Below are positions 5,357 to 35,406 of a stretch of 64,000 nucleotides of DNA, piece after piece (the first letter of the stretch is position 1; the number at the start of each line of letters is the position of its first letter). The translations under genes were made by a program, and so were the position numbers. Origin of the DNA: Desulfovibrionaceae bacterium (GTDB lineage: Bacteria; Desulfobacterota; Desulfovibrionia; Desulfovibrionales; Desulfovibrionaceae). The stretch lies in the NCBI GenBank assembly GCA_051650105.1, contig JBOFIJ010000006.1, positions 121,352 through 185,351 of the forward strand, given 5' to 3'. The notes under the pieces are model-generated. The model made no database searches. It had not been told where the DNA came from and worked only from the letters and a program-made list of their open reading frames with translations.

Positions 5357-6402
5357 TGAAAATATTAGTATCTTTTTTTATAGTATTGTCTTTTTTCTTT
5401 CCTGTTTCTGTAGGAGAAGCAAAGAAAAAAAGAGTTGTCATTATTTACAATTGGTCTGAATATATTCCAGAAAATGTTCTTAAACAGTTTGAAAAAGAAA
5501 CGGGGATACGTGTTATTTATAGCACATATGAATCTAATGAGGCTATGTTTGCTAAATTAAAGATTTTGGAAGGAAAGGGCTATGATATTATAGTGCCTTC
5601 CACATATGTTATTAGTAAACTTAAAAATAACAATTTATTGCATCCTATAGATAAAAGTAAGTTAACAAATTTTGCTAATATTAATCCTTTGTTATTGGGA
5701 CAATCTTTTGATAGGAAAAATGAATATAGTATACCCTATATGTGGGGGTCTACTCTTTTGCTTGTCAATAAATCAAAGATAGATCCCACTAAAATCACAA
5801 GTTGGAATGATTTAAAGAAAAAAGAATTTAAGGGGCACGTTTTTCTTTCTGATGATTTACGTGATACTATGGGTATTGCTCTTAGGACACTCGGTTTCTC
5901 TCCTAATACAAGGGATGCTAAGCAGATAGAGCAAGCTGCCAAATGGTTAGAGGAATTAATGCCTTCAGTTCGTGTATTTGATATTACGGCACAGAAGCAG
6001 GCTTTTGTCAGTAAGGAAGTACTAATTGGTACTGTATGGAGTGGAGATGCTTTTGTAGCTATAGAAGAAAATAGCGATCTTGTGCCTGTTTATCCTAAGG
6101 AAGGAGTTTCTCTGTGGATTGATAGTTTTGTTATTCCAAAGGGTGCAAAAAATATAGATGAGGCGCATGAATTTATTAATTTTTTATTGCGACCAGAGAT
6201 AGCTGCTCAAAGTGTTGAAGAGTATTTCTATTCTACACCAAATATCCATGCTGTACAATATTTGCCTCCTGAAATAGTAAAGAATTCCCTTATTAATCCA
6301 CCAGATAAGCTTATAGAGAAATCTGCAATTTTAGATGATGTTGGTGATGCGATTGGAATATATGAGCAATCTTGGGAAAAGATTAAAGTAAAAAATAAGT
6401 GA
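5356..6402 (+). CDS. potD: Periplasmic spermidine/putrescine-binding protein
   Basis: Signal peptide MKILVSFFIVLSFFFPVSVGEA and PotD/PotF-family length and sequence. A TAATG junction joins it to potC. Confidence 0.88.
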   Translation: MKILVSFFIVLSFFFPVSVGEAKKKRVVIIYNWSEYIPENVLKQFEKETGIRVIYSTYESNEAMFAKLKILEGKGYDIIVPSTYVISKLKNNNLLHPIDKSKLTNFANINPLLLGQSFDRKNEYSIPYMWGSTLLLVNKSKIDPTKITSWNDLKKKEFKGHVFLSDDLRDTMGIALRTLGFSPNTRDAKQIEQAAKWLEELMPSVRVFDITAQKQAFVSKEVLIGTVWSGDAFVAIEENSDLVPVYPKEGVSLWIDSFVIPKGAKNIDEAHEFINFLLRPEIAAQSVEEYFYSTPNIHAVQYLPPEIVKNSLINPPDKLIEKSAILDDVGDAIGIYEQSWEKIKVKNK

Positions 6403-6411
6403 TATTTTGTA

Positions 6412-6446
6412 AAAGGTTTCTTTGTATATGAGAAGCCTTTTTTATT
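6412..6446 (+). terminator. Rho-independent terminator after potD
   Basis: Stem aaaggtttc (6412..6420) pairs with gaagccttt (6432..6440), including one G-U pair, and is followed by a T run. Confidence 0.6.
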
Positions 6447-6453
6447 GTGTATC

Positions 6454-6609
6454 TTTCTATTCTACAATATCCATGCTGTACAATATTTGCTTCCTGAAAT
6501 AGTAAAGAATTCCCTTATTAATCTAGCAGATAAGCTTATAGAGAAATCTGCAATGTTAGATGATGTTGGTGTGATGCGATTGGAATATATGAGCAATCTT
6601 TGGAAAAGA
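6454..6609 (+). repeat. Degenerate direct duplicate of the last ~155 bp of potD (parent 6225..6382)
   Basis: Hand alignment shows about 5 substitutions, a 3-nt deletion and a 2-nt insertion that shifts the frame. The copy lies just past the potD terminator. Confidence 0.9.
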
Positions 6610-7198
6610 GTAGTAGTAATATAGTATTGATGTAACAAGGAGATTCTATGTTCATAATGTGCATATCTAATATAAAGTTATATGTTGTTGTTCTTACACA
6701 ATAACTTTACAAATGAAAAGAATGTTATGTAAAATGTTTTTTTGTGTTATTTTTTGTATTGTTTTCTTTCTTATTGGAAATAGAGAGTGTTATATTCTTT
6801 CTAAATTTGTAATGAAAAAAATATCATAGTGTTTATAATGTTCGTAAATGGAAATTTTTGTCGATATTGTTTATAAAAAAAATAGGATTGTATAAGAATA
6901 TATAGATGTTTCTATTTAGGAGAGAAAATTTTCTCTTTATTCATGAGAGTATTGATTTTTTATATGAAGTAGTACATATTCTCCACTGGTGTTTTTGGAA
7001 ATTAAGGATAATTTTATTTGATGCTCTTGGAAAATAGTGTATTTATAGTATAGTATTTCATAAATAAATTTCCATTACATAAGAATATATTATGTAGTAA
7101 AAGAATATGTATAATGTCATTATCTCGTTGAGAATATATGTTATTATTGTTCCTATCTTGTAGAAAACATTATTTTTTGTTGGGAAGGTGGATGAGAG

Positions 7199-7852
7199 AT
7201 GAGTAAAGAAGAAAAAGCCCTTTTTGTATTATGTTCTCTTAGAAGAAGGTATCCTGTAATTCCTACTCTGCTATATGCAAAGAACCCTTGGGAGCATCTT
7301 GTTGCTACTATTTTGTCTGCTCAGTGTACTGATGCACGAGTTAATATGATAACACCATATTTTTTTGAGATGTGGCCAACACCGTATGATCTATATGATG
7401 TGGAACAAGTAGAAGTTGAGAGTGTTATACGAAGTACTGGATTTTTTAGAAATAAAGCAAAACACCTAATAGGAAGTGCGAGAAGAATTATTGATTATTA
7501 TGGAGGTGAAGTTCCAAGTACGATGGAGGATTTGCTTTCTTTGCCTGGAGTTGCACGAAAAACAGCTAATGTTGTATTATGGGAACAATTTGGTATAAAT
7601 AAGGGTTTAGCAATAGATACTCATGTAAAAAGAATAATGCATCATTTAGGGCTCACAGAAAATACAAATCCAGATAAAGTTGAACAAGACCTTATTGTAC
7701 TTTTTCCTCAAGAGGACTGGGGGGATATAAATAAAATGATGGTTTGGTTTGGAAGAGAAGTATGCGATGCAAAAAAACCACGTTGTAATGGATGCTGTTT
7801 GTTTGACGTTTGTGAGTATAGCATAAACAAAAATATCGTAAGACCAGCCTAA
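7199..7852 (+). CDS. nth: Endonuclease III (HhH-GPD glycosylase/lyase with 4Fe-4S cluster)
   Basis: HhH motif LPGVARKTANVVL with the catalytic Lys, catalytic Asp in AIDTHVKRI, and Fe-S motif CDAKKPRCNGCCLFDVC. Confidence 0.9.
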   Translation: MSKEEKALFVLCSLRRRYPVIPTLLYAKNPWEHLVATILSAQCTDARVNMITPYFFEMWPTPYDLYDVEQVEVESVIRSTGFFRNKAKHLIGSARRIIDYYGGEVPSTMEDLLSLPGVARKTANVVLWEQFGINKGLAIDTHVKRIMHHLGLTENTNPDKVEQDLIVLFPQEDWGDINKMMVWFGREVCDAKKPRCNGCCLFDVCEYSINKNIVRPA

Positions 7853-7897
7853 GAACACAGTGCACTTATACAAGTCTCACGATACGTAATTTTGAAG

Positions 7898-8179
7898 CTA
7901 CTTGGATTTTACTTTTTCTTTAAGGCTCTTTGATGGAGTGAAGCGAGCAACTTTGGAAGAAGGTATCAATATTTCTTCACCAGTACGCAAATTCCTACCT
8001 TTACGGGCTGCACGTTCTACAATTTTAAAACTACCCAAATCAGGTAAAGAAACAGAATCACCTTGAGTCAACACATCTACTAAAGATGATATTACAACAG
8101 TTAATGCTGTTTCTGCCTGTGCTTTAGACGGATATCCACCTATTTTTTGAATTTTTTCAATAAGATCTGCTTTAGTCAT
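7898..8179 (-). CDS. hup: HU/IHF-family nucleoid-associated DNA-binding protein
   Basis: 93 aa with typical HU sequence MTKADLIEKI..GSFKIVERAARKGRNLRTGEEI. Confidence 0.88.
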   Translation of the reverse strand: MTKADLIEKIQKIGGYPSKAQAETALTVVISSLVDVLTQGDSVSLPDLGSFKIVERAARKGRNLRTGEEILIPSSKVARFTPSKSLKEKVKSK

Positions 8180-15468: not shown

Positions 15469-16284
15469 ATGAGGAATATTCTTTATTTATTCTTATTTTT
15501 TATTTTCTTTGTAGAAAATGCTTTTGCTGGAGAGGTAGAATGGAGACAGTTGTCGACACAAATGGATATCCTCACAGTACCAACTCGCTACGATGGCAAT
15601 ATTACCATTGTGCGTTTTAATCCAAAAGCATATATGGTACGTATTCTTTCTTCTTCTATTTTACGAAAGAATGTTCTTTCTGTTAAAGAATGGGAGGAAG
15701 AGTATCATTTTATTCTTGCTATAAATACAAGTATGTATGCTCGAGATAATAAAACGAGTATCGCCCTATTAAAAACAATTCAGGGTTTTAATAATCACAA
15801 GTTGTCCACTCATTTTGGGGCTCTTTTTCTTGCTAATCCCATTGATACTAGCCTAGATTCTGTTATTTTGGTCGATACCCCAAATGTAGCTGAAAAAGAT
15901 ATTGTTCTATTGTTAGAAGAATATACTGATGCTGTGCAAAATTTTAGAATTATTGATTCCAAAAGAAATCTTGTTTGGAAATCGAAAAATAATCCATATA
16001 CTACTATTTCCGCTGTTGCAAATGATGGAGATGGAAATATTTTGTTTATTCATAGCCAGGCTCTTTTAACACCACCTTTACTTGGAAAGATACTCCTTTC
16101 TTTACCCATTAATATACGCACAACGATGTATACTGAAGGGGCAGGAGAATCTTTCTTATACATTAATTATAAGGGTGTGCATACGTTGTTGGAAGGAAGA
16201 GCGCGTAATCCATTTTCTTTTATAACAGGTTCCCCTAAAATCCCTAATATATTTGCTGTGTATCCAAGACATGAGAAAAAATAG
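15469..16284 (+). CDS. Secreted phosphodiester glycosidase-like (DUF2233) protein
   Basis: Signal peptide MRNILYLFLFFIFFVENAFA. Segments LAINTSMY, AVQNFRIIDS and AVANDGDGNILFIHS resemble DUF2233 conserved blocks. This is from memory, not searched. Confidence 0.5.
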   Translation: MRNILYLFLFFIFFVENAFAGEVEWRQLSTQMDILTVPTRYDGNITIVRFNPKAYMVRILSSSILRKNVLSVKEWEEEYHFILAINTSMYARDNKTSIALLKTIQGFNNHKLSTHFGALFLANPIDTSLDSVILVDTPNVAEKDIVLLLEEYTDAVQNFRIIDSKRNLVWKSKNNPYTTISAVANDGDGNILFIHSQALLTPPLLGKILLSLPINIRTTMYTEGAGESFLYINYKGVHTLLEGRARNPFSFITGSPKIPNIFAVYPRHEKK

Positions 16285-16360
16285 AGTTATCCATGGCATC
16301 TTGATGCATGTCTTAGAAGGAGTATTTGTGTGTTAATCATAACGGTATAAAATATATACT

Positions 16361-16432
16361 CCATTTTCTTTTATACCAGGTTCCCCTACAATCCCTACTA
16401 TATTTGCTGTGTATCTAGGGCACGAGAAAAGT
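16361..16432 (+). repeat. Degenerate direct duplicate of the 3' end of the preceding gene (parent 16210..16284)
   Basis: ccattttcttttataccaggttcccctacaatccctactatatttgctgtgtatc.. versus ccattttcttttataacaggttcccctaaaatccctaatatatttgctgtgtatc... About 8 substitutions and no indel over ~68 nt. Confidence 0.85.
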
Positions 16433-16807
16433 TGTCTTGGTTTAGAGGATTGTAAAATTGATGAACATAACGCGAAGAAAACTCTTAACGAAGATCTCTA
16501 TTGTTATTTTCTAAAGAGTATGTTTTGTTACTGTTTACTTCAGAAAAATCCAAAACAGATATTTTTTCATATATGCAATAGAATAGTGATAGAGCTCTCA
16601 TATATTGTATAGTGTTGTGAATAGTTTAGATTGTTTTCAGATTGTATTATAAAAAAATATTTGTTATTCTGATATTGATTGGTATAAATTACTATAAATT
16701 GTTTCTATATATAAAAGAATATATTTATAGGACATAGTAATAAAAAAATATAATTATTTGAGGATATCGTTATTAAAATTATTGTAGATGATGATTCTCT
16801 TCCTAAA

Positions 16808-17728
16808 GTGTGTTCAAATAAAGCAGGTGATGATTACTTGGCTTTAGACAAACATACTATACTATTGGGTGATTGTAGAGAAAAAATAAAAATAATAGAA
16901 GATGCTTCTGTCGATATAATTATTACAGATCCTCCATATTTTTTAGATGGATTAGATGGTAATTGGAACGGTTCTGATGTAGATAGGAAAAGAAATAAGG
17001 CTGGTATTGTTGGTGGTTTGCCAGTGGGTATGAAATTTAATACAAAGCAGGGAAAGAATTTTCAGAAATTCTATTATGGGGTATCACAAGAATTATATAG
17101 AGTTCTTAAACCGGGTGGTTTTTTCTTGTCTTTTAGTCAACCACGGTTATTTCATAGAATGGCTGTTGCTGTTGAAGATGCTGGTTTTGAAATTAGAGAT
17201 CAATATGTATGGAAATATGGGCAATCTCAAATGAAAGCTTTTAGTCAGAATCATTTTGTGGAAAAAATGGCAATTTCGGATGTAGAAAAGAAAAGAATAA
17301 TAGAGGAGTTAGCTGGAAGGAAGACTCCCCAATTGCGCCCACAATTTGAAAGTATCTTATTAGCACAAAAGCCAAAAGAAGGTACATTTGTACAAAATTG
17401 GTTGAAATGGGGTGTTGGCTTAGTGGATACAAAGCAAACATTAGATGGGAAAACACCTACAACAATAATGAAAATGGATAAAGCTCAAAAGGATGAATAT
17501 AACACTCATTTAACAGTGAAACCAGTGAGGCTGTTAGAGCATTTAATACAATTATTTTCACAGAATGGTCAAGTAGTGTTGGATCCTTTTTTAGGGAGTG
17601 GTTCAACAATAATAGCATCTTATAATACAGATAGAATATGTATTGGTATAGAGATACAAGAAGAATACTATAATGTTGCAAAGAAAAGAAGTACACAAAT
17701 GGGAATAGAATATCTTGTTAGGGATTAA
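16808..17728 (+). CDS. Beta-class (motif IV before motif I) DNA N6-adenine/N4-cytosine methyltransferase, most likely m6A
   Basis: Motif IV IITDPPYF lies near the N-terminus and AdoMet motif I DPFLGSGST near the C-terminus. The start is uncertain: GTG at 16808 or a TTG 11 codons in. Confidence 0.8.
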   Translation: MCSNKAGDDYLALDKHTILLGDCREKIKIIEDASVDIIITDPPYFLDGLDGNWNGSDVDRKRNKAGIVGGLPVGMKFNTKQGKNFQKFYYGVSQELYRVLKPGGFFLSFSQPRLFHRMAVAVEDAGFEIRDQYVWKYGQSQMKAFSQNHFVEKMAISDVEKKRIIEELAGRKTPQLRPQFESILLAQKPKEGTFVQNWLKWGVGLVDTKQTLDGKTPTTIMKMDKAQKDEYNTHLTVKPVRLLEHLIQLFSQNGQVVLDPFLGSGSTIIASYNTDRICIGIEIQEEYYNVAKKRSTQMGIEYLVRD

Positions 17729-18873
17729 AAGAAGTGCCAGACATTGAGAATGTTCTTTAAAGGAAGTGGGTATTACTGTGTTATGTAAGTTTATCTAGAA
17801 AATACAGTAACAATGTGCAGAAAGTAGTAATAGAACAGGGCTTTTTAGAGAATGTAGTAAAAAAATACTCTGAATGATGCTATTATTACAGATATTTTTG
17901 TAAAACAACATAGTGAAGACAGCGTTGCAAGAGGTACACAAGAAAATGTTTTGAGTGCTTGGAAATTGACTGAAGCAGAATATAAAAAAGGATGAGATTA
18001 CATTCTTCTGTAGTAAGATAGTAGTATATAGTGAAACTATTTTGAGAGCGTATAAAAGAAGAATAAGAATATAGTGTAATTCTTTATAATGAATTAAGAA
18101 AGATTTCAGAACTGTTTGTTATAGAAAGAGATGGTTTTGGTATGGGAAAAGATGCTAACGTTTTGTTAGCAGAAATTCTTGAGAGTAGGCAGAAACATGG
18201 TGTGACCATGTGTACAGAAATTGTGATTGTAGGTGCCTCTAATAATACGCACTACAAGAACTGCTTCTCTTGATATCAGTGATGATTGTGGCTATATAAT
18301 ATATTCTAATATCAAATGGTATTCCAGAAACTATCTAACTAAGTATATGTTCTCCTAATTTTAGTGTATTAGATGTATAGCATTTATTACAGAGTGAATA
18401 TTTCTTTACACAATATCTTTTGGAAAATATTGTCTATATCTTTTATAATCTACTGTGGAACATATTCTAAAAATAAGGATATAATAAAGTAATGTTCTGT
18501 GTATTTTTGAAGAAGAGAGATAGGATATCTACCATAAGCATTCTTTTTTATTATATTATGAAGTTAGATGGAATATAGTGTATTTGTTATCTTAGATATA
18601 TAATATAAATAACGAGTATCGTTTTTATAATGGGAAGATACTATTATAGTATACATAATGCCTTTATAAGGTTTGTTCTATAGGTGAGTAAGTAAGTGTA
18701 CATATTGTATGAAGCAAATAAGTAAAGCACAATAACAAAAATTTTTGAGGTATATACTTATATGTTAGTGCAGTTTTTACTTTTTATGAGTAATAAGTGG
18801 GAAGATATTGTACTTGATAATAAAAGCATTTAGTGTGTTCTATAATTATGTCTGTTTTGTCTATGTGAAGGGA

Positions 18874-21247: not shown

Positions 21248-21335
21248 TGGTACCCAGAGCCAGACTTGAACTGGCACGGCCGTAAAGGCCGAGGGATTTT
21301 AAGTCCCTTGTGTCTACCTATTCCACCACCTGGGC
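21248..21335 (-). tRNA. tRNA-Leu (anticodon UAA), CCA encoded
   Basis: Reverse complement GCCCAGGTGGTGGAATAGGTAGACACAAGGGACTTAAAATCCCTCGGCCTTTACGGCCGTGCCAGTTCAAGTCTGGCTCTGGGTACCA. It folds into a 7-bp acceptor stem (two G-U pairs), anticodon loop CTTAAAA, a long class-II variable arm and T-loop TTCAAGT. Confidence 0.9.
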
Positions 21336-21942: not shown

Positions 21943-22725
21943 ATGAAAGTAGTAATATTGGCTGGTGGTTTGGGAACGCGGTTATCAGAAGAAACAACAC
22001 TATCTCCAAAGCCAATGCTTGAAATTGGTGGCCATCCAATACTATGGCATATTATGAAGATATATTCTTATTGGGGTTTTGATGATTTTATTATTCTTTC
22101 AGGGTATAAATCACATATTATTAAAGAATATTTCATTAATTATTATACAAGATATTCAGATATTACGGTGGATATGAGCAATAATAGTGTGGAAATTCAT
22201 AAAAATAGAAATGAATCTTGGAAAGTGACAATTATGTATACTGGCGAACATACAATGACAGGTGGAAGGCTTTTGCAAGTAAAAGATTTTATTGGAGAGA
22301 ATACTTTCATGCTTACATATGGTGATGGTTTAAGCGATGTTATTGTTCCACATTTATTAGAATTCCATAAGGAAGCTCGTAAAGTAGCTACTGTTTTGGG
22401 CATACAGTTATCTGGCAGGTTTGGAACAATTTCTATAGACGAAAACAGTATAGCTAATTCTTTTGAAGAGAAAAAAAGAGAAGAGCAATGGACTAATGGA
22501 GGTTTTTTTGTTCTAGAGCCTAGCATATTTGATTATTTAGATAATGACGATGCGTGTGTATTTGAAATAGAACCTATGGCAAGTCTTGTAGAAAAGCAAC
22601 AATTAGCAGTATTTAAACATACAGGATTTTGGCATGCAATGGATACATTAAAAGATAAAAATAATTTAACAAAAATGTGGTTTGAAGAAAAATCTCCGTG
22701 GAGTATATGGAAAAATACTATATAA
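21943..22725 (+). CDS. rfbF: Glucose-1-phosphate cytidylyltransferase
   Basis: MKVVILAGGLGTRLSEET..PKPMLEIGGHPILWHIMKIYS is characteristic of RfbF, and the ~257-260 aa length matches. Confidence 0.85.
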   Translation: MKVVILAGGLGTRLSEETTLSPKPMLEIGGHPILWHIMKIYSYWGFDDFIILSGYKSHIIKEYFINYYTRYSDITVDMSNNSVEIHKNRNESWKVTIMYTGEHTMTGGRLLQVKDFIGENTFMLTYGDGLSDVIVPHLLEFHKEARKVATVLGIQLSGRFGTISIDENSIANSFEEKKREEQWTNGGFFVLEPSIFDYLDNDDACVFEIEPMASLVEKQQLAVFKHTGFWHAMDTLKDKNNLTKMWFEEKSPWSIWKNTI

Positions 22726-23117
22726 AATGTGTTTTAATGAGAAGGAGTGCAAGAATGTGGTTATGCTTATTGATTGTGTCTGTGTGCTTGCAAAGCTGAT
22801 AAATGTTGAGGGGCCGTGAATGCCATTATGAAAAATGCTGCTATGTCATTATCTTTTAAGGAAGTGTTTGGGTATAGGTAGATATTGTTTTCTCCTTGTC
22901 TTGTAGTTTTATAGAATGAAAGAGTGAGAATTATGAGCAATAATATGTTTTGGTATACATTATCGTGTGGAGTTTTTATTTTCGTATGCACATAATAGTG
23001 TTTCTATATTTGGAAGAAATTGCTAGTGTAGTATACTTATGTGTAAAATATACTAGAAGCACATAGTATCATTGTGTTATTTTTTGGGTGCGTCTATTTT
23101 ATTAATAAGAGAGTATA

Positions 23118-23651
23118 ATGAGATATATTCAATTAAAAATTAAAGGGGCTTTTCTCCTTGAATATGAACGTATACAAGATGAGCGTGGTTCTTTTGCTCG
23201 TGAATTTTGTAAAAAGGAATTGAATTCTATGGGGATTACCTTTGATGTGTGTCAAATGAATATATCCCATAATAATAAAAGAGGAACAATTCGTGGTATG
23301 CATTATCAAATATTTCCTTATGAAGAACAGAAGATTGTTTTTTGTTCTACAGGGTCTTTATATGATGTTATAGTAGACTTGCGAAGAGATTCTGCAACAT
23401 ACCTGCAATGGATAGGGCACACATTGGATCCAAGCAATAATTCAATGCTTTTTATTCCTAAAGGATGTGCACATGGTTTTCAAACGTTAGAAGATAATAC
23501 AACGTTACACTACATAGTGGATGAATATTATATTCCAAGTGCATATGCTGGAGTGCGATATAATGATCCTTTGCTTGCTATAGATTTTCCTATACAAGAT
23601 GGTATTATTATTTCTGAAAGAGATGCCACATATAGCGATATAATAGCATGA
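23118..23651 (+). CDS. RmlC-fold NDP-4-keto-6-deoxyhexose 3,5-epimerase family protein
   Basis: Cupin blocks DERGSFAREF, RGMHYQ, YDVIVDLRRDS and GCAHGFQTL. Confidence 0.8.
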   Translation: MRYIQLKIKGAFLLEYERIQDERGSFAREFCKKELNSMGITFDVCQMNISHNNKRGTIRGMHYQIFPYEEQKIVFCSTGSLYDVIVDLRRDSATYLQWIGHTLDPSNNSMLFIPKGCAHGFQTLEDNTTLHYIVDEYYIPSAYAGVRYNDPLLAIDFPIQDGIIISERDATYSDIIA

Positions 23652-24487
23652 AAAGAGTATTGCTCACAGGATCAACGGGCTTAATAGGAAAAGAAGCAAT
23701 TCTTCCACTAAAAGAGCATGGTTTTACTGTAATTTGTCTCAATTCTTCAGAATGCAATCTTTTGAATTATGATGATGTCCGTGCATTTGTGAAAGATTCT
23801 TGTGCAACGCATCTTATGCATTTTGCATGGTTTACAGGAAGGGGGTATTTAACAAGCCCATTGAATGAAGAGTACTATGAAGCGAGCATGAACCTTTTAC
23901 AGGCTTTTGTACAATGTGGTGGTGAACGAGCTGTGTTTGCAGGGACGTGTCTTGAATATGCCAATAAGAATACTGCATTGCAAGAAGAAGATCCTCTTTC
24001 TTCCTCCTCTTTGTATGCGAAATATAAAAATATATTGCGTATTAATGCAGGAAAGTATACAAAAAGACACGACGTTTCTTTTGGATGGGGACGTATTTTT
24101 TATGCATATGGTTGTTCAGATGGCTCTGGTAGTTTGTTCTCGTATCTCGTGGAAAATTTACGAGAAAATAAGACAGTGCATATCCATAGTGGTGATTTGT
24201 TGAGAGATTATATATACACGAAAGATATAGTAAATGCTTTCATATGTATTTTGAGAAACCAAAATGATATACTTGTTAATGTTTGTACCGGAACCGCAGT
24301 ACGTATTGCTTTTTACGCCGAATGTATTGCGCAGTATATGAAAAAACCATTACTATTGCGTGTTGGCACTACCGTAACAGATGAAGCACCAATTATTATT
24401 GGAGAGAATACAAGGCTACAATCATTGGGGTATAGAACACAATATACTTTAGAAAAAGGACTACGGGAAATATTTTATGAAAGCTAA
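23648..24487 (+). CDS. Extended SDR, NDP-sugar 4-ketoreductase/epimerase-like (279 aa)
   Basis: Rossmann motif GSTGLIG and catalytic YAKYK (YxxxK). It has a 4-nt overlap with the upstream gene. Confidence 0.7.
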   Translation: MKRVLLTGSTGLIGKEAILPLKEHGFTVICLNSSECNLLNYDDVRAFVKDSCATHLMHFAWFTGRGYLTSPLNEEYYEASMNLLQAFVQCGGERAVFAGTCLEYANKNTALQEEDPLSSSSLYAKYKNILRINAGKYTKRHDVSFGWGRIFYAYGCSDGSGSLFSYLVENLRENKTVHIHSGDLLRDYIYTKDIVNAFICILRNQNDILVNVCTGTAVRIAFYAECIAQYMKKPLLLRVGTTVTDEAPIIIGENTRLQSLGYRTQYTLEKGLREIFYES

Positions 24488-25481
24488 GATAGAAACAAGA
24501 ATACATACAAAAAATCGTACCAAATTAGAAAGTGTTATACCCCTTAAGACGCCTCTTATTATTAATATAGATCCCTCAGATACATGTAATTTTCAATGTA
24601 ATTTTTGTCCAACAGGTGATAGACAGTTAATGAAAGAAACACCTGGAAGAAATTATGGAATAATGGATTTTGAATTATATAAAAAAGCCATTAATGATAT
24701 TTGTACATTCGATGAAAAAATAAAAGTATTACGTTTATATAAAGATGGGGAACCTCTTCTTAACCCAAAATTTTCGGAAATGATTGCGTATGCAAAAGAA
24801 CGTGAATGCTGTGAAAAAGTAGATACCACAACAAATGCTTCTTTGCTTACTCCAGAGCGTAGCCGTAAAATTATAGATGCTGGTCTTGATGGTATTAATA
24901 TTTCTATTGAGGGTGTCACTGCCGAGCAGTATAAAGATTTTTCTCATTATTCAATACAATATGATACATTGGTTGATAATATCCGTTTTTTTTATGAACA
25001 TAAAAAAGATTGTGAAATGCTTGTAAAGATAAATGGCGACTTATTAACAGAAGAGCAAAAACAAGAATTCTTTGATATATTTGGGAATATAACAGATAAA
25101 ATTTTTATTGAAAGCGTTATGGATTGTTGGCCTACATATGAAATTAATAAAATAGAGGTGAATAAAACTCGTGGGATATATGGACAAGAAATTAACGAAG
25201 TTCTTGTATGTCCATACGTATTTTACTCATTTGCTATTAATTCTAATGGAACAGTGAGCTTATGTTTCTTAGATTGGCACAGAAAATTGGTTATTGGAGA
25301 TATAAAGACAGAATCTGTGAAAGATATTTGGGAAAGTGAAGCATTACGAGAATACCAACGCCTTTTCTTGCGTGGAGATCGTAAATCTCATCCAATATGT
25401 AGGGATTGTGGACAGCTTAGACAGGGTCAACCAGATAATATTGATGCATTTGCAAAGTCATTGTTAGGAAAAGTATTATGA
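24477..25481 (+). CDS. Radical SAM protein with truncated SPASM/twitch-like C-terminal domain (paralog 1)
   Basis: CX3CX2C motif CNFQCNFC. The C-terminal part has CPYVFYSFAINSNGTVSLC (CX12GX4C) and CRDC. Confidence 0.8.
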   Translation: MKAKIETRIHTKNRTKLESVIPLKTPLIINIDPSDTCNFQCNFCPTGDRQLMKETPGRNYGIMDFELYKKAINDICTFDEKIKVLRLYKDGEPLLNPKFSEMIAYAKERECCEKVDTTTNASLLTPERSRKIIDAGLDGINISIEGVTAEQYKDFSHYSIQYDTLVDNIRFFYEHKKDCEMLVKINGDLLTEEQKQEFFDIFGNITDKIFIESVMDCWPTYEINKIEVNKTRGIYGQEINEVLVCPYVFYSFAINSNGTVSLCFLDWHRKLVIGDIKTESVKDIWESEALREYQRLFLRGDRKSHPICRDCGQLRQGQPDNIDAFAKSLLGKVL

Positions 25482-26503
25482 GTATACAACATAAATATAG
25501 AGTGAATAAAGAAAAGCATGAAGTGCTTGGCAATGTTGCTCCCCTAGAGGAGCCATTTGTCTTACTTATTGATCCTTCTAATTTATGTAATTTTAGGTGT
25601 AAATTTTGTCCAACAGGCGATCAAAAACTTATAAAGTCAACGGGAAGGTATAATGGTTTATTAGATTTTACGTTGTTCACAAAAATAATAGATGATTTAA
25701 AAGAATACAGTCGCCCAATTAAGACACTACGTTTGTATAAAGAAGGTGAGCCTCTGCTTAACCCCAAATTTGAAGAGATGGTGGCATATGCAAGGAAAAG
25801 TGCTTTTGTACAACGTATAGACACAACAAGTAATGGAGCATTATTAACACCTGAACGTAACAGAAAAATTGTAGAGGCTGGTCTTGATCAAATAAATATA
25901 TCTGTTAATGGTATAACAGCGGAACAAATATATTATTTTACGAAGACAAAAGTAAATTTTAGTGCATACGTGGATGCTATTAGGGATTTATATGAAAATA
26001 GGGGAAATTGTGAGATATCAATAAAAGCAATAAAAGAAAATTTAACAGAAGATGAGCAGAAAGTATTCTACGATATTTTTGGTCCTCTTTCAACAAGAAT
26101 AAGTTTAGAACATATTTCTCCTGCATGGCCTCAATTTGAGCTGCATGAGGATGTTATTAGTACATATACCGCAGGTAATTATGGGCAAGAAGTTTTAGAG
26201 CGAGAAGTGTGCCCCTATATATTTTATATAATGGTAATTAATTCAGATGGAAGAGTGAGTACATGTGTTGGGGATTGGCCAAATAAACTTATTGTTGGAG
26301 ACGTTCGAAAACAAAGTGTACGGGATATATGGAAAGGTGTTTTGTTAAATAAACATAGAATAGCACATTTAGAAGGAAAAAGGTGGGATGAACCTTTCTG
26401 TGCGGATTGTGAGGTGGTAACATATGGAACACTTGATAATTTAGATTCATACGCAGGGGAGATTCTTTCACGGATGCGTGCTAAAAATTTTATGGGAGAA
26501 TAG
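25478..26503 (+). CDS. Radical SAM protein with truncated SPASM/twitch-like C-terminal domain (paralog 2)
   Basis: CNFRCKFC, then CPYIFYIMVINSDGRVSTC and CADC. It is colinear with paralog 1 (LRLYKEGEPLLNPKF, TPERNRKIVEAGLD). An ATGA overlap joins it to paralog 1. Confidence 0.8.
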   Translation: MSIQHKYRVNKEKHEVLGNVAPLEEPFVLLIDPSNLCNFRCKFCPTGDQKLIKSTGRYNGLLDFTLFTKIIDDLKEYSRPIKTLRLYKEGEPLLNPKFEEMVAYARKSAFVQRIDTTSNGALLTPERNRKIVEAGLDQINISVNGITAEQIYYFTKTKVNFSAYVDAIRDLYENRGNCEISIKAIKENLTEDEQKVFYDIFGPLSTRISLEHISPAWPQFELHEDVISTYTAGNYGQEVLEREVCPYIFYIMVINSDGRVSTCVGDWPNKLIVGDVRKQSVRDIWKGVLLNKHRIAHLEGKRWDEPFCADCEVVTYGTLDNLDSYAGEILSRMRAKNFMGE

Positions 26504-26505
26504 GG

Positions 26506-27522
26506 GTGAAAATAGCGTTATTAGGTGGTTATGGTAATATAAGTTGGTGGTGCACAAAAGAAGCTCTTGAAAGAGGATATGATGTTTATGTAATTAACCG
26601 CCAAGAAACAATAAGAACAAGAAGAAAGGCTCCAGAAGGTGTGCATATTCTTATAGCAGATTATAGAAATATGGATGAAATGCATGCACTTCTCAAAAAG
26701 CATACGTTTGATGTTGTATGTGATTTTATATGCTATACAGAAGAACATGCAAAAAATGCAGTAGAGCTATTTAAAGGAAAAACAAAACAGTATATTTTTA
26801 TTAGTTCAGAAGCTATTTATGACAGAACAAAATGTTCTGCTCCTTTTAATGAGTCTTCTCCAAAATATGATGCAAGGACGGTGTCTGGTTATATTGCAGA
26901 TAAAATACGAGCAGAGCAAGTTTTTATAGAGGCCTATGAAAAAGAATCTTTTCCTGTCACTATTGTGCGTCCAGGGTTCACGTATGATACCATTCTTCCT
27001 AATTTTGCAATGGTCACATGTTTTACCGTATATAAAAGGTGTTTAGAGGGTTTCCCATGGATAATAATAGAAGATGGGGAAGCTATGTGGACATTCACCC
27101 ATTCAAGTGATTTTGCAAGAGCATGTGTTGCTTTATTTGGAAAGAAAAATGGTATTGGTGAAGATTATATTATTACAACAAATAGATTGTATTCTTGGAA
27201 TGAAGCATCTCGTGTTATTCTAGAGAATCTTGGTTTACAGGGACATTCTATAATTCATATTCCTTATACTGAAGAAAGGCTGTCTTCCTTATATCCATCA
27301 AAGGAACTTATTTACCACAGTGCTGTGGATAGTGTTTCTGATACCACAAAAATAAGTACTCTTTGTCCTATGTGGTCTCCACAAGTCTCTTTTGAAGAAG
27401 GGGTATCCGCAACGTTATTGTGGTTGAGTGAAGAGAATGAAAGACAACGTAGTGTGCCAAAAGTAGATGAAATATATAAAGATATTACAGCAAAGTACTA
27501 TGTTATCCATGAAGGAGAATGA
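26506..27522 (+). CDS. NAD-dependent epimerase/dehydratase-family SDR with atypical glycine motif
   Basis: N-terminal LLGGYGNIS takes the place of GxxGxxG. YIADK is a candidate YxxxK. GTG start. Confidence 0.6.
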   Translation: MKIALLGGYGNISWWCTKEALERGYDVYVINRQETIRTRRKAPEGVHILIADYRNMDEMHALLKKHTFDVVCDFICYTEEHAKNAVELFKGKTKQYIFISSEAIYDRTKCSAPFNESSPKYDARTVSGYIADKIRAEQVFIEAYEKESFPVTIVRPGFTYDTILPNFAMVTCFTVYKRCLEGFPWIIIEDGEAMWTFTHSSDFARACVALFGKKNGIGEDYIITTNRLYSWNEASRVILENLGLQGHSIIHIPYTEERLSSLYPSKELIYHSAVDSVSDTTKISTLCPMWSPQVSFEEGVSATLLWLSEENERQRSVPKVDEIYKDITAKYYVIHEGE

Positions 27523-27523
27523 T

Positions 27524-27628
27524 ATGAGAAGGTATTATCCTATTTATGATAGTTCTCATAGTAATTATATTTCTATTTTATGTGATACTATGAAAATAGT
27601 GGATAGTGTATGGGAAAGTGTAACATGA
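27524..27628 (+). pseudogene. Decayed duplicate of the 5' end of the downstream C-methyltransferase gene
   Basis: The 34 codons MRRYYPIYDSSHSNYISILCDTMKIVDSVWESVT* compare with MGRRCPICDSSNKSHISVLCDTMKILGSSFPES at 27655. Both Zn-ribbon Cys codons are now Tyr. Confidence 0.8.
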
Positions 27629-27654
27629 TAGTAAGGTAGTGAAGGAGAGTATAT

Positions 27655-28839
27655 ATGGGTAGACGGTGTCCTATTTGTGATAGTTCCAATAAAAGTCATA
27701 TTTCTGTCTTGTGTGATACTATGAAGATATTGGGTAGTTCTTTTCCAGAAAGTAGTAGTAATAATGTGGAATGTAGTGCTTGTGGTTGTGTGTATGTGGA
27801 TATGGAAGCAGTGCAGGATAATTTTACTACATACTATAGAGCTATTGCAAAATCGATTTCTTATAATACTATTTTTGGCAAAGAGAATACCAATACATAT
27901 TATGGTATGATATGGACTGCCTTAGAGAAATATGTACAGATGCATTCTTGTAAAAAAGAGGATATTGCAATTCTTGATGTGGGGTGTGGCTTTGGTGAAT
28001 TTATTGAATATTTACAAAATAGGGGTTATTGTAACGTACAGGGAGTGGAGCTTTCAGAGGAATGTGTTTCCAAAGCTAAAGAAAAAGGCTTACGTGTCAC
28101 TAAAGCAGATATTGTAAATGAGGAAGACTGCATAAAAGATCAATTTGATATCATTATATTTAGTCATGTGGGAGAACATATAGTAGATTTTAAAAAGGCT
28201 ATTGAGAACCTTAAAAAATTACTTAATAATGATGGATATCTTTATATGGAATTTCCCGATGCAAGAAAATATTGTGATGTTGATTTTGGTGCTTATTTCT
28301 TTACTACATACGAACATGTTATGCATGTAACAGACAAGACATTGCAAAATATTGCTTTAGTACATTCTTTAACATTGTTATCGTTTGATACATATCAAAA
28401 ATTAGATAAATATTATGTTATATTTGGAATATATAAGAAATCCTTTGAAGAAAAAACCAGCTCTTGTTTTTATGATACTACTGCAAAAGAGGCTTTTATG
28501 CAATACGAAGCTTTTTCGCAGGTAAAAATACCTTCTTTTGTGAAAGAATTAGAAGAATCACAAGAAGAAATTATTTTGTGGGGAATTGGTGCTTCCACTG
28601 CTATTTTACTTAGTAAAGTATTTCATTCTCATAATGTTATATATCTAATAGATTCTAATACACAAAGGCAAGGAATAGTATTTTGTATAAATAATAAGAA
28701 AGTGTCGGTAGAAGCTCCTAGTGCAATACAGAATTCTGTTGCTACCATAGTGGTGCTTCCGGAAATATATGGTACTGCTATAAAAAAAGAGCTTTATGAA
28801 GCAGGCTATAAAAATAATGTGCTATTACTTTCTATGTGA
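27655..28839 (+). CDS. NDP-hexose C-methyltransferase-like protein (Zn ribbon + class I SAM MTase + C-methyltransferase C-terminal domain; TylCIII architecture)
   Basis: N-terminal CPICDS..CSACG, SAM motif ILDVGCGFGEF, and a C-terminal Rossmann-like block ILWGIGASTAILL..LIDSNTQRQG typical of the Methyltransf_14 domain. Confidence 0.7.
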   Translation: MGRRCPICDSSNKSHISVLCDTMKILGSSFPESSSNNVECSACGCVYVDMEAVQDNFTTYYRAIAKSISYNTIFGKENTNTYYGMIWTALEKYVQMHSCKKEDIAILDVGCGFGEFIEYLQNRGYCNVQGVELSEECVSKAKEKGLRVTKADIVNEEDCIKDQFDIIIFSHVGEHIVDFKKAIENLKKLLNNDGYLYMEFPDARKYCDVDFGAYFFTTYEHVMHVTDKTLQNIALVHSLTLLSFDTYQKLDKYYVIFGIYKKSFEEKTSSCFYDTTAKEAFMQYEAFSQVKIPSFVKELEESQEEIILWGIGASTAILLSKVFHSHNVIYLIDSNTQRQGIVFCINNKKVSVEAPSAIQNSVATIVVLPEIYGTAIKKELYEAGYKNNVLLLSM

Positions 28840-29042
28840 AATATACTTTTGCTATATACTGTAAAAGAATAGGGTATTTAGAAAAAGATATAGTGGTATT
28901 TTTGTGGAGTACAAAAGAAAATAAATGCAAGAGTAGATGATAATTAACTATATGGGAAGCCATTAAAATTCTTGATCTTTATGATATTGTTTTGTACCAT
29001 AGTGCCCATATCTACATCCTTTTTATAAAGATAAACCTTATA

Positions 29043-30008
29043 ATGCAGACAAAAATATCTTCTCCATCCATTCAATCAACAAATCATACTACAGATGAAC
29101 GTGCTCTTGTTAGTATAACCATACCTACATATAATCGCGTAGACCTTCTTAAACTATGTTTAGAGAGTGCTGTATCACAAACATACGGTAATCTTGAAAT
29201 TATCGTTGCGGATAATCACTCAACAGACGGCACAGAAGAGTTATGTATGGAATATAAAAAACATGATTCTAGAATACGCTATTATAGACATGAAAAGAAT
29301 TTTGGTGGACAGTATAATATTAATTTTCTTTGTAAAAAAGCCACTGGTAACTATTTTTATTCTTTAAATGACGACGATTTTATATGCAATAATACAATTA
29401 TGAGATCTGTGTCTGTTTTGGAAAAAGATCCACAGTGCTCTGTAGTGTATGGAGCAACCAAATTATATAATATTGATGGTACTCTCAAATACTTTGAGAA
29501 GCATAACGATATTGTGGGAAATACTTTTGGGGAACGTGTGAGATCATTTTGTAAGCGTGGCCACGCATTACCTGTTACAACAGGGCTTATGAGAAAAGAA
29601 AATATTGATGCTGTAGGTGGCCAGGGAAGTTCTTTTTGTGAAGATCAACTATACATAGTAAAAATGTTTTATTTTGGCACAATGTTATTTCTTGATGATA
29701 TTTTTTTTCATAAAACTACTAAATGCAGTACTACTGTTACTTTGGACGCAATGAAAGAAGAGTATATTCTTCCAAGTGATATGCATTCAGGAAATTATAT
29801 GCATAAACTTACTTTGGAATATATGCATTCTATATTATATGATCCTTTTTATGAATTAAGACTGCAAAATGATGAAAAAATGGAATTAATATACTCTATA
29901 GTATTAGCATTTAATGATATTAATCAAAGTAGTACTAAAAAAAGTAGTACTAAAAAAAGGAGTAAATTAGCTAAAATAATGCGCATTATAAAGGGAAAAG
30001 AAATATGA
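29043..30008 (+). CDS. Family 2 glycosyltransferase
   Basis: VSITIPTYNRVDLLKLCLESAVSQTY..IIVADNHSTDGT and a DDD motif. The ATG at 29043 is preferred over the upstream TTG at 28992. Confidence 0.8.
   Translation: MQTKISSPSIQSTNHTTDERALVSITIPTYNRVDLLKLCLESAVSQTYGNLEIIVADNHSTDGTEELCMEYKKHDSRIRYYRHEKNFGGQYNINFLCKKATGNYFYSLNDDDFICNNTIMRSVSVLEKDPQCSVVYGATKLYNIDGTLKYFEKHNDIVGNTFGERVRSFCKRGHALPVTTGLMRKENIDAVGGQGSSFCEDQLYIVKMFYFGTMLFLDDIFFHKTTKCSTTVTLDAMKEEYILPSDMHSGNYMHKLTLEYMHSILYDPFYELRLQNDEKMELIYSIVLAFNDINQSSTKKSSTKKRSKLAKIMRIIKGKEI
29928..29957 (+). repeat. Perfect 15-bp tandem duplication inside the GT2 C-terminal tail
   Basis: agtagtactaaaaaa occurs twice and encodes SSTKK-SSTKK, in frame. 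Confidence 0.9.
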
Positions 30009-30011
30009 TAT

Positions 30012-31256
30012 ATGGCTGATGTATATAGAATCCTTCATATTGCACCACATTTTGGTGGTGGTATTGGAAGTACATTATCCACATGGCTGTCTTCTGATAC
30101 AAGTGCTATTCACAGTGTGGCATTGTTAGAATATGCAAATGAAAAAGCAATTGCTCTTAGTAGAGAGTATTCAATTTTCTTAATTGATAATATGCATTCC
30201 AAAATAGAAGATCTATTACAATTAATGGAAAATGCTGATATTGTGATTATACATTTTTGGAATCATCCTTTTTTATATAATTTCTTGGTGCGGTATAGAA
30301 TGCCAAAATCAAGAATAATTATATGGTCTCATATTTCTGGTATAGCATATCCCAATAGTATTCCTCAATCTATACTTACATATGGTAATAAATGTATTTT
30401 CACAACAGAAGCCAGTTTTCATTATATTGATGCTCCTAAAGGCCCACGATACGAAACTATTCTTTCTATTGCTTCTCTTGGTCGTTATAATAATACAGTG
30501 CCTAAAAAAAGGGCTTCTCCATTTACTATAGGTTATGTTGGTACTGTAAGTTATCTTAAAATGCATCCAGATTATATAAATATTCATAAAAGAACATCGG
30601 CAGATAGCATTATTATAGTTGGCGGAGATTCTGAACATGAAATAGCACAAGAAGCTGATTCTCGTTTTATTTTTACAGGAAAAGTAGATAGTGTTTTTAC
30701 TTATTTAGAAAAAATGGACGTTTTTGCTTATTTACTGCATCCCAAGCATTACGGAACGTCTGAGCATGTTTTACAGGAAGCATTATCTGCTGGAGTTGTT
30801 CCTGTTGTATTGAATAATCTCAGTGAATCCTATTTAATTCAGCATGCTATAACAGGATTTATTGCAAATACTATTGATGAATATATTGAATACATTGCTC
30901 TTTTAAAAAAGGATGTCCATCTATATAATATGTTTTCTAAAAACGCTAAGAAATATGCACAGGAATATTTCTCTATAAATACCATGATTACTGCTTGGAA
31001 AAGAGTATTTGAGAAGGTAATGGAAGAAGAAAAAAAGGAATATATCTGGAATACACAAAAACGAAGCTATACATCGCTTGAAATATTTTTGGAAAGTATA
31101 GGGAAATATGCACCTATGTTTTTGCAAGATGGAGAAGTCTGTTCTGCAAAATATTCTTTACATGAGGAGCATAAAGGTTTTCCTGGGCATTATTATAGGT
31201 TATTGGGTGGAGAAGAGCTTTATAATCTCATTCATTCAGCAACGGGTAGCAAATAG
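30012..31256 (+). CDS. GT-B fold (family 4-like) glycosyltransferase
   Basis: C-terminal EX7E-type block GTSEHVLQEALSAGVVPVV, 414 aa. Confidence 0.7.
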   Translation: MADVYRILHIAPHFGGGIGSTLSTWLSSDTSAIHSVALLEYANEKAIALSREYSIFLIDNMHSKIEDLLQLMENADIVIIHFWNHPFLYNFLVRYRMPKSRIIIWSHISGIAYPNSIPQSILTYGNKCIFTTEASFHYIDAPKGPRYETILSIASLGRYNNTVPKKRASPFTIGYVGTVSYLKMHPDYINIHKRTSADSIIIVGGDSEHEIAQEADSRFIFTGKVDSVFTYLEKMDVFAYLLHPKHYGTSEHVLQEALSAGVVPVVLNNLSESYLIQHAITGFIANTIDEYIEYIALLKKDVHLYNMFSKNAKKYAQEYFSINTMITAWKRVFEKVMEEEKKEYIWNTQKRSYTSLEIFLESIGKYAPMFLQDGEVCSAKYSLHEEHKGFPGHYYRLLGGEELYNLIHSATGSK

Positions 31257-34108: not shown

Positions 34109-34981
34109 AAAGCCTCTAAGTTTAATCAAAAAATCCTTAAGGAGTATACTGTATTCATATAAATTTGGCAAGCATGCTCTTTTTCTGGAGATTTTTTTCT
34201 GTTTTGTGTGCTAATGAATATATACTTGCCTCGTGATATATGGTGTGTATTGTAAAAATTATATTTATATAAAGAGTATAGTATTATTGTGATATTTGTG
34301 GCCTTTATTAGGTATCTTTTTTATTCATTGTAGTTCTATCACATAGAATAGTAATATGGTGTGTTGGAGGCACAGGAATAGAGCATAATCCTTTGTGAGA
34401 TGCTGTTTATATTGTATGTATTATTGAGATATGTATTATTGCTTTGAATTATGCTATTTGTATAAAGGTAAAGAAAGGAGAAAGACAGATATTTTTTTTG
34501 AAAAAGTTTTTATTACGCGTTATTCCTAATAATGCATAGACTATTTTTTCTATGTTGAGAAAAGATATTCTGTGGGTGAACAAAAATTAATGCATGGTAG
34601 ATTATATCTTGTTTATCATAGGGACTATACTTGAAAATTAAGAAGTACCTATAGAGACATACACGTATGATAATAGAAGAAAAAGTATTTTTGTAGAGTA
34701 TAGCATTGCTATAATGCGATATTATGTATTAATGGAGTCTTCTGTTGTTCTATATAAATTATAAAAAAAGAGGCAATGAGAGCATATGATAGTACAAGAA
34801 AATAATATGCTTTCCTAAAAGAGAATAGGTATTGAGAAGAGATAGTCTATATTAAAAAATTACTAAATGCCATTGTATCAAGAGACGATAAAAATAGTCC
34901 TTTTATTATTACTATAAGAATGTTTAATTCTTCGAACAATATTTGGGGTTACGTGTGCTGTATACTATTATGATGAGAAGA

Positions 34982-35311
34982 TCAGTGGTATTGGTAGGGA
35001 GCAAATTTATGCTTAGGATCCTCTGCAATAATTCTATACTCTATACCAAAACCATCAAAACCAATATCTGCTTGGGTGTATCCCAATGCCTTACCTAAAC
35101 CCAAACGTATTTGCTCGGCCAATAAATCCACACCACCATGACTCTTTATTTTTGATATTCTCGCTGAAACACCGTTTTCCACCTGAATAGGAATATTTAC
35201 TTCCATTAAATAAGGAATAGCGCTTTGTGTTATTATCCACTCCCATGTCCTAATAGCATCGTACTGAATTTTTCTTACCATTGCTAAAGAATGCGCTATT
35301 ATTTCATCCAT
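34982..35311 (-). pseudogene. Remnant of a biotin carboxylase (AccC / pyruvate carboxylase ATP-grasp) domain
   Basis: PYLMEVNIPIQVENGVS compares with the canonical FYFIEMNTRIQVEHPVT. VDLLAEQIRLGLGKAL..GFGIEYRIIAEDP compares with VDLVKEQIRIAAGEPL..GHAIECRINAEDP. Only ~109 of ~450 residues remain, and catalytic Arg and His positions are changed. Confidence 0.75.
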
Positions 35312-35406
35312 TACTTTTTGTAGATTGGGGGAAGCGATACCATAGGAGAATACTATTTTTTAAAAAGTATAAGGATAGGAGCATATTTTCTAAAAGAAGA
35401 CATATA

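Follow-up and report, generated by a model that had tools for sequence, protein, structure and literature searches.

A 64-kb stretch of the genome of a Desulfovibrionaceae bacterium (64,000 nucleotides; GenBank assembly GCA_051650105.1, contig JBOFIJ010000006.1, positions 121,352 to 185,351), referred to here as the window, carries a block of genes for a cytidine diphosphate (CDP)-linked sugar that includes two enzymes of the radical S-adenosylmethionine (SAM) type. The block spans positions 21943-31256, all on the + strand, and ORF (open reading frame) calling found each of its nine ORFs intact, with products of 177-414 amino acids (aa). It opens with rfbF (21943..22725), which encodes a glucose-1-phosphate cytidylyltransferase of 260 aa (MGL4721913.1; 356 bits against TIGR02623, cut-off 300). 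A non-coding gap of 392 bp (22726..23117) separates rfbF from the gene of an RmlC-fold nucleoside diphosphate-4-keto-6-deoxyhexose 3,5-(or 5-)epimerase (23118..23651; 177 aa; TIGR01221 163 bits with a cut-off of 155.75; PF00908, E 1.2e-56). There follow SDR279 (23648..24487), an extended short-chain dehydrogenase/reductase (SDR) of 279 aa (PF01370) with a GSTGLIG motif and Y123xxxK127; the radical SAM enzymes rSAM1 (24477..25481; 334 aa; MGL4721916.1) and rSAM2 (25478..26503; 341 aa); SDR338 (26506..27522; 338 aa), an atypical extended SDR with a GGYGNIS motif, recognised by profile search and conserved residues, which is the partner of rSAM2; and MT394 (27655..28839; 394 aa), a SAM-dependent methyltransferase. 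Two glycosyltransferases of the GT2 (28992..30008; PF00535, E 1.9e-29) and GT4 (30012..31256; PF00534 and PF13692) families close the block. The true ATG of the GT2 gene is probably downstream of the TTG called as its start at 28992. The original prediction, made from the DNA letters, had described a nine-gene CDP-sugar block of just these gene types, and the ORFs together with the Pfam and NCBIfam profiles agree with it. Its 'several' 4-nt overlaps come down to two, at the rmlC/SDR279 and rSAM1/rSAM2 junctions; SDR279 and rSAM1 overlap by 11 nt.

An RmlC-type epimerase requires a 4-keto sugar as substrate, so some enzyme must supply one. Where is it? The CDP-glucose 4,6-dehydratase RfbG and the E1 enzyme RfbH were sought with four RfbG and two RfbH queries from related loci, and tblastn gave no match anywhere in the 64 kb, the 392-bp gap included. 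Neither SDR279 nor SDR338 matches TIGR02622, the model for CDP-glucose 4,6-dehydratase, and no DegT or ferredoxin-reductase domain (E1/E3 type) was found by Pfam in any of the nine block products. The predicted lack of a recognisable RfbG, RfbH and E3 is thereby upheld. The gap had been placed exactly where rfbG usually follows rfbF, which is correct: in the most similar cassette of another genome (L005/L006/L012 in our numbering of loci) the same position is filled by a TIGR02622 gene. In the window the gap has no annotated gene, as judged from NCBI accession numbering, and no RNA family according to Rfam, whose sole match nearby is a tRNA-Leu at 21248-21335. Searching by tblastn with rSAMx, a separate radical SAM family described below, gave no match in the gap and paralogue cross-hits only in the window. 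Three readings of the absence of rfbG remain: the gene is elsewhere in the genome, the pathway is broken, or the ketone comes from a radical SAM enzyme. An ordinary loss or relocation of the dehydratase is the most likely.

What kind of radical SAM enzymes are encoded here? rSAM1 and rSAM2 are paralogues (44% identical), and both match Radical_SAM and SPASM in Pfam. By their sequence pattern, C37, C41 and C44 of rSAM1 would bind the SAM cluster (CX3CX2C) and C245, C263, C308 and C311 an auxiliary cluster; rSAM2 carries the same seven cysteines. All seven are invariant (100%) in 88 rSAM1 and 18 rSAM2 orthologues, and no other C-terminal cysteine is conserved. Since only four C-terminal cysteines are conserved, the proteins are of the Twitch type with a single auxiliary cluster, not of the full SPASM type. 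A full SPASM domain as in anSME, with a seven-cysteine motif and two auxiliary clusters, was considered because of the Pfam matches and rejected on this count. BtrN, which the original prediction had offered as an analogue, proved a good choice: it is the best PDB sequence match of both proteins, via the C-terminal domain, and the best fold match of rSAM1. C263, C308 and C311 of rSAM2 align to Cys 187, 232 and 235 of BtrN, and C245 is spaced as a counterpart of Cys 169 would be; in BtrN these cysteines are the ligands of the auxiliary cluster. An AlphaFold model of rSAM1 (predicted local distance difference test score, pLDDT, 90.3) has BtrN (4m7t) as its top Foldseek match (E 1.1e-13, template-modelling score 0.78 on the target), followed by DesII and BlsE; the substrates of all three are sugars or sugar nucleosides. 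No characterised member of the radical SAM family was found in NCBIfam, the PDB or the searchable literature, in keeping with the earlier claim that a route of this kind had not been described.

The two paralogues differ at residue 217, which is Cys in 97% of rSAM1 sequences and in 0% of rSAM2 sequences (15 of 18 have Ala). Nearly all the remaining paralogues carry A, I, V, L or P there, and none that directly abuts SDR338 has Cys. The model of rSAM1 places C217 just past strand β6 (residues 208-212), on the side of the barrel where the active site is. A single Cys of HygY reportedly donates the hydrogen that finishes an epimerisation, and its removal is said to leave a dehydrogenase. From this precedent and the distribution of Cys217 we propose that rSAM1 may be an epimerase and rSAM2 a dehydrogenase.

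SDR279 has ordinary GxxGxxG and YxxxK motifs and follows rmlC in most related loci; its NCBIfam matches, to GDP-fucose synthase and RmlD, are partial only. It is a probable C-4 ketoreductase, judging from its sequence. SDR338 belongs to a family of ~1,350 clusters, the nearest of which is only 50% identical to the window protein, with GGxGNISW, S100, Y129 and K133 invariant. Is SDR338 a cryptic 4,6-dehydratase? A profile alignment (hhalign) sets the Asp-Lys dyad of RfbG against E102, conserved in just 11 of 18 sequences, and A103; moreover, SDR338 also co-occurs with rfbG, and the candidate was rejected for these reasons. SDR338 is no ordinary 4,6-dehydratase, and the simplest reading makes it a probable ketoreductase.

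MT394 consists of a zinc ribbon, a class I SAM methyltransferase domain and a C-terminal Rossmann-like domain, an architecture of the TcaB9 type as seen by fold. Its invariant residues are C5, C8, C40 and C43 of the zinc ribbon plus H171, E220 and H221. The model of MT394 (pLDDT 91.3) is matched by TcaB9, MtmC and KijD1 over ~438 columns (E ~1e-21), whereas all other methyltransferases match a core of ~230 columns only, with E 5e-12 or worse. The C-methyltransferase domains foreseen in the original prediction are thus borne out by fold, over the full length of these enzymes, and not by Pfam, which detected no Methyltransf_13/14 in MT394. The other profiles it had named (Radical_SAM, SPASM, PF00908 and PF01370) were all found, with the SPASM domains proving to be of the Twitch type. 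A homologue of MT394, P0243, has a precomputed PF08484 match. TcaB9 went undetected when MT394 was used in sequence-level searches and only the fold search succeeded; MT394 would be read as having a sugar C-3-methyltransferase-like architecture, formal family membership not being established. MT394 matches above 170 bits are confined to loci that also carry SDR338, and rSAM2 or a related paralogue directly abuts SDR338 in most loci. A three-gene module fits, in which rSAM2, MT394 and SDR338 would act so that a hydroxyl is oxidised, the adjacent carbon methylated and the ketone reduced.

Are these genes found with or without the classical pathway in other genomes? At E <= 1e-10 the rSAM1 family counts 2,612 sequence clusters, the best 120 of which are 65-75% identical, and relatives of rSAM1 are encoded in 202 stretches of species-representative genomes; no homologue was found in the phage collection. 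The comparison of loci covers 80 of the 202 stretches (54-73% identity to rSAM1), and the ORFs of every locus were scored against the window proteins, RfbG and RfbH. Among the loci are ones from bacteria (Gastranaerophilales, Brachyspira, Treponema, Lachnospiraceae, Chlorobiaceae, Bacteroidota, Geobacteraceae, Prochlorococcus, Pelagibacterales and candidate phyla radiation bacteria) and from archaea (Methanoperedenaceae and Promethearchaeota), with rSAM1 identity across phyla of 54-75%. The typical order is rfbF - rfbG - (rfbH) - rmlC - SDR - rSAM1 - (rSAM2 - SDR338) - (MT394) - GT4 - GT2, and in 49 of 63 loci rSAM1 is followed downstream, on the same strand and within 6 kb, by a GT4 orthologue. 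Non-redundant loci with rfbF number 42, and 36 of them have rfbG. The other six are L021, where another radical SAM gene occupies the rfbG position; L010, cut short by a contig edge; L047, whose divergent archaeal rfbG scores below the threshold used; and the window, L013 and L025, the three loci in which rfbG is truly missing beside rfbF. The closest cassette overall, from an Acidaminococcales metagenome-assembled genome (L005/L006/L012), has the gene order of the window, and L005/L012 score 552 bits for rSAM2, 350 for MT394 and 381 for GT4. In L006 the gene at 3095-4162 reaches 480 bits with TIGR02622 and stands exactly between rfbF and rmlC. L001 has a genuine RfbH (NF011936 719 bits). RfbH/E1 occurs together with rSAM2 and/or SDR338 in five loci (L008, L016, L021, L026 and L040), and rfbG together with rSAM2 and SDR338 in six. 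A tailoring module can also stand apart, as in L023, which has no rfbF, rfbG or rmlC within 10 kb; since its pathway genes are unlinked, an rfbG elsewhere in the genome of the window is plausible too.

The central idea of the original prediction, that pairs of radical SAM enzymes and SDRs replace RfbG and E1/E3, finds no support for this locus in the comparison. The gene neighbourhoods it had named as a check run against it, with radical SAM genes accompanying classical genes in most relatives. Because rfbG is present in so many rfbF loci and in the closest cassette, and because RfbH co-occurs with the module, the radical SAM genes are additions in most genomes. On balance, the window is likely to hold one copy of a laterally spread cassette whose radical SAM enzymes tailor the sugar after the classical chemistry, rather than substituting for RfbG or E1/E3. 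The product is probably a modified, methyl-branched deoxy sugar linked to CDP. RfbF would make CDP-glucose, and a 4,6-dehydratase encoded elsewhere in the genome would turn it into CDP-4-keto-6-deoxyglucose; loss of the dehydratase gene would leave the pathway stalled. The RmlC-type enzyme and SDR279 would then yield a CDP-6-deoxy-L-hexose, as in the Campylobacter jejuni HS:41 pathway. rSAM1 would remove a ring hydrogen and most likely return one from Cys217, so epimerising an unactivated carbon as HygY does, while rSAM2, which has no Cys217, would turn a hydroxyl into a ketone in the manner of BtrN. MT394 could then methylate the carbon beside the new ketone and SDR338 reduce the ketone, after which GT4 and GT2 would transfer the branched sugar to an existing glycan.

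Several points weigh against the tailoring scheme. There is no rfbG in the 64 kb searched, and all three rfbG-less loci have rSAM2-SDR338: 3 of 9 loci with the module are rfbG-less, compared with 0 of ~31 without it. These loci represent at most two independent lineages, and for this reason, and because the closest cassette has rfbG, the association was given less weight. Classical C-3-methyltransferases use the 4-ketone derived from RfbG. Why then would a second oxidation be needed before C-methylation? Given what the classical enzymes use, the need is not obvious. H171, E220 and H221 of MT394 are similar to the catalytic H181, E224 and H225 of TcaB9 in position, not by residue-level alignment. 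The argument from Cys217 leans on the HygY precedent, and the assignments built on it are best taken as an analogy. Lastly, we infer the substrate, the site of attack and the type of reaction for all members of the family.

Could radical chemistry supply the 4-keto sugar at this locus after all? In the next best explanation, an unlikely one, RfbG and/or E1/E3 would be replaced here by the radical SAM enzymes together with their partner SDRs, which would produce the 4-keto sugar for both the RmlC-type epimerase and the C-methyltransferase without a nicotinamide adenine dinucleotide (NAD)-dependent 4,6-dehydratase; rSAM2 might oxidise C-4 of CDP-glucose, or dehydrate a vicinal diol in the manner of AprD4. 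The 64 kb hold no rfbG, no rfbH and no remnants of either, yet the nine genes are intact, and the RmlC-type enzyme must receive its 4-keto substrate. The shared presence of rSAM2 and SDR338 in the three rfbG-less loci points the same way, as do BtrN and DesII, the nearest structural relatives, which oxidise or deaminate sugar carbons. The six loci in which rfbG stands beside rSAM2 and SDR338, however, and the five with RfbH, give the pair another role in most genomes, and rfbG is present in the most similar cassette, whose gene order is the same. A dehydratase dyad, whether Asp-Lys or Asp-Glu, is missing from SDR338, and the unlinked genes of L023 make a distant rfbG a plausible source of the ketone.

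The same explanation also gains from rSAMx, a Radical_SAM+SPASM family of ~367 aa that scores only 26 bits to rSAM2 of the window. Its genes are found in Brachyspira hyodysenteriae pBHWA1 (L088, 18925-20028, - strand), in Treponema primitia ZAS-10 (L021, 5597-6748) and in two Lachnospiraceae loci (L077, 2284-3384; L058, 1-1044), in each case between rfbF and rmlC, and none of the four loci has rfbG. The order is rfbF - rSAMx - rfbC - SDR in pBHWA1 and rfbF - rSAMx - rmlC - rfbH in T. primitia. rSAMx is a candidate, by sequence and gene order, for a radical replacement of CDP-glucose 4,6-dehydratase, and its occupation of the rfbG slot in rfbG-less loci makes such a replacement plausible in principle. 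The window has no rSAMx orthologue, which counts against replacement there. More specifically, a Twitch radical SAM enzyme and its SDR partner might make a keto-sugar directly from CDP-glucose in the window, L013 and L025, by radical and NAD-independent chemistry, with rSAMx doing likewise in B. hyodysenteriae and T. primitia; we consider this a shade less probable than replacement in general.

Or is the block simply decaying? It may be that rfbG was deleted, leaving the 392-bp gap as a scar, so that the block stops after CDP-glucose and the other genes have not yet been disabled. In the closest cassette it is rfbG that occupies exactly the position of the gap, and genes for export or polymerisation are missing from the locus. 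Some 4 kb from the block, a stretch of 1.2 kb without long ORFs (34172-35406) surrounds an ORF of 109 aa (34982-35311, - strand) whose match covers no more than the final ~70 positions of the ATP-grasp CPSase_L_D2 domain. By its sequence this fragment looks like a pseudogene remnant, and the resemblance would mean that gene loss is under way near the cluster. The nine ORFs of the block, however, are intact across 177-414 aa with coupled or overlapping junctions, although at 33% GC ~7% of random codons are stops and unselected ORFs should break fast. The catalytic cysteines and SDR motifs have all been kept, and the gap holds no recognisable rfbG remnant, so that any deletion is not visibly recent. 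We regard decay as doubtful, on a par with direct radical formation of the keto-sugar.

Most SPASM/Twitch enzymes are peptide maturases. It is least likely of all that the Twitch proteins act on a finished glycan, a lipid-linked intermediate, a protein or a peptide instead of a nucleotide sugar: the Pfam SPASM match and many weak NCBIfam matches are to peptide maturases, the tightest linkage of rSAM1 is to a glycosyltransferase, and Brachyspira has up to six paralogues per cluster, but the window showed no precursor-peptide gene or recognition element of ribosomally synthesised and post-translationally modified peptides, a conservation as high as 54-75% identity between bacteria and archaea is in keeping with a fixed small-molecule substrate, the enzymes matched best by structure act on sugars and are not peptide maturases, and the linkage to CDP-6-deoxyhexose genes is constant.

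How does the tailoring cassette compare with known systems? To our knowledge, it is mainly from antibiotic pathways that sugar-tailoring radical SAM enzymes have been characterised to date (BtrN, HygY, SpeY, DesII and AprD4). BtrN, the 2-deoxy-scyllo-inosamine dehydrogenase of the butirosin pathway (PDB 4M7T), shares with rSAM1 and rSAM2 the CX3CX2C motif and one four-cysteine auxiliary cluster with the same spacing, and it acts on a carbohydrate-like secondary alcohol. Its substrate is a free aminocyclitol in an antibiotic pathway, whereas the window enzymes belong to a CDP-sugar locus for a surface glycan, are ~16% identical to BtrN and are ~85 residues longer. HygY and SpeY, Twitch radical SAM enzymes that act on sugars as an epimerase and a dehydrogenase respectively and in which one Cys reportedly sets epimerisation against dehydrogenation, offer a parallel to Cys217 of rSAM1 and Ala of rSAM2. 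SpeY is a weak fold match of rSAM1 (E 1.6e-7); both HygY and SpeY act on aminoglycoside intermediates, unlike the proposed CDP-sugar. TcaB9, KijD1 and MtmC, and also TylC3, which are nucleoside diphosphate-hexose C-3-methyltransferases, resemble MT394 in having a zinc-binding N-terminal domain, a class I methyltransferase and a C-terminal nucleotide-sugar domain. MT394 is 12-15% identical to TcaB9, KijD1 and MtmC. Enzymes of the TcaB9 type use deoxythymidine diphosphate-4-keto sugars in actinomycete antibiotic pathways, whereas MT394 is predicted to use a CDP-sugar and is linked to a radical SAM/SDR pair. A CDP-linked, C-methyl-branched 6-deoxy-L-hexose is known in CDP-vinelose (6-deoxy-3-C-methyl-2-O-methyl-L-talose) from Azotobacter vinelandii, and a product of this sort could come from the cassette.

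Among CDP-sugar pathways, the CDP-6-deoxy-L-altrose route of C. jejuni HS:41 has been defined experimentally and comprises a cytidylyltransferase, a 4,6-dehydratase, a 3,5-epimerase and a C-4 reductase (PMC12369002). This is the rfbF-rfbG-rmlC-SDR core of the related cassettes; compared with it, the window lacks the dehydratase and the pyranose/furanose mutase and adds two radical SAM enzymes, a second SDR and a methyltransferase. The Rfb/Asc pathway to CDP-3,6-dideoxyhexoses has RfbF in common with the window, and its RfbG, RfbH and E3-like protein are not in the window block; sister cassettes, unlike the window, often carry RfbG and RfbH. The rfbF/rfbC/radical SAM block of B. hyodysenteriae pBHWA1 has been linked to virulence, its function being unknown, and part of the radical SAM block is reported missing from strains of reduced virulence; the genes are mentioned merely as 'radical SAM domain proteins' (PMC4267127). 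Like the window, this block has an rSAM1 orthologue (62% identity), rfbF, rfbC, an SDR and a GT4; unlike it, it has six radical SAM genes, with rSAMx in the rfbG slot, and no SDR338 or MT394 orthologue. Five tandem Twitch paralogues follow the rSAM1 orthologue on this 36-kb plasmid (L088, 10855-16105, - strand) and on related Brachyspira plasmids (H1-H10), and Cys217 is kept by the rSAM1 orthologue only.

The lasting interest lies in a widespread and as yet uncharacterised system by which Twitch enzymes would tailor CDP-deoxyhexoses, and of which the window has a somewhat defective-looking copy. The family is large and conserved, is tied to CDP-deoxyhexose cassettes for surface glycans and often has several paralogues per locus. 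Solving its chemistry would probably uncover rare sugars not seen before on the surfaces of bacteria and archaea, and would also offer a natural way to test the rule by which one Cys separates epimerase from dehydrogenase.

The cassette also varies between genomes. In L003/L004 (10047-15823) and L007 (10011-13898), methyltransferases of the FkbM family follow rSAM1 together with a radical SAM protein that binds B12, in place of rSAM2-SDR338-MT394, which suggests that the same sugar is methylated by other chemistry there. L013 has two tandem rfbF-like genes (16020-18139; TIGR02623 274 and 350 bits), then an adenylyl-sulfate kinase, a variant that hints at a second nucleotide sugar and sulfation. 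In L025 ([Clostridium] aminophilum KH1P1), an ORF of 627 aa (6023-7906) combines an N-terminal GT4-like region with a full RmlC domain (TIGR01221 162 bits) and appears from its sequence to be a glycosyltransferase-epimerase fusion.

The flanks of the block in the window are housekeeping genes, with priA, tRNA-Leu, ssb, a sigma factor, leuS and ABC transporters. As predicted, the polysaccharide export and polymerase genes wzx, wzy, wzm and wzt are missing from the examined remainder of the window. Promoter and terminator scans gave scores no better than on shuffled sequence. The tRNA-Leu(taa) gene (21248-21335, - strand) has its 5' end towards the island, the start of which is ~600 bp away, and a gene for a DNA N6/N4-methylase (16808-17728, + strand) is found 3.5 kb further upstream.

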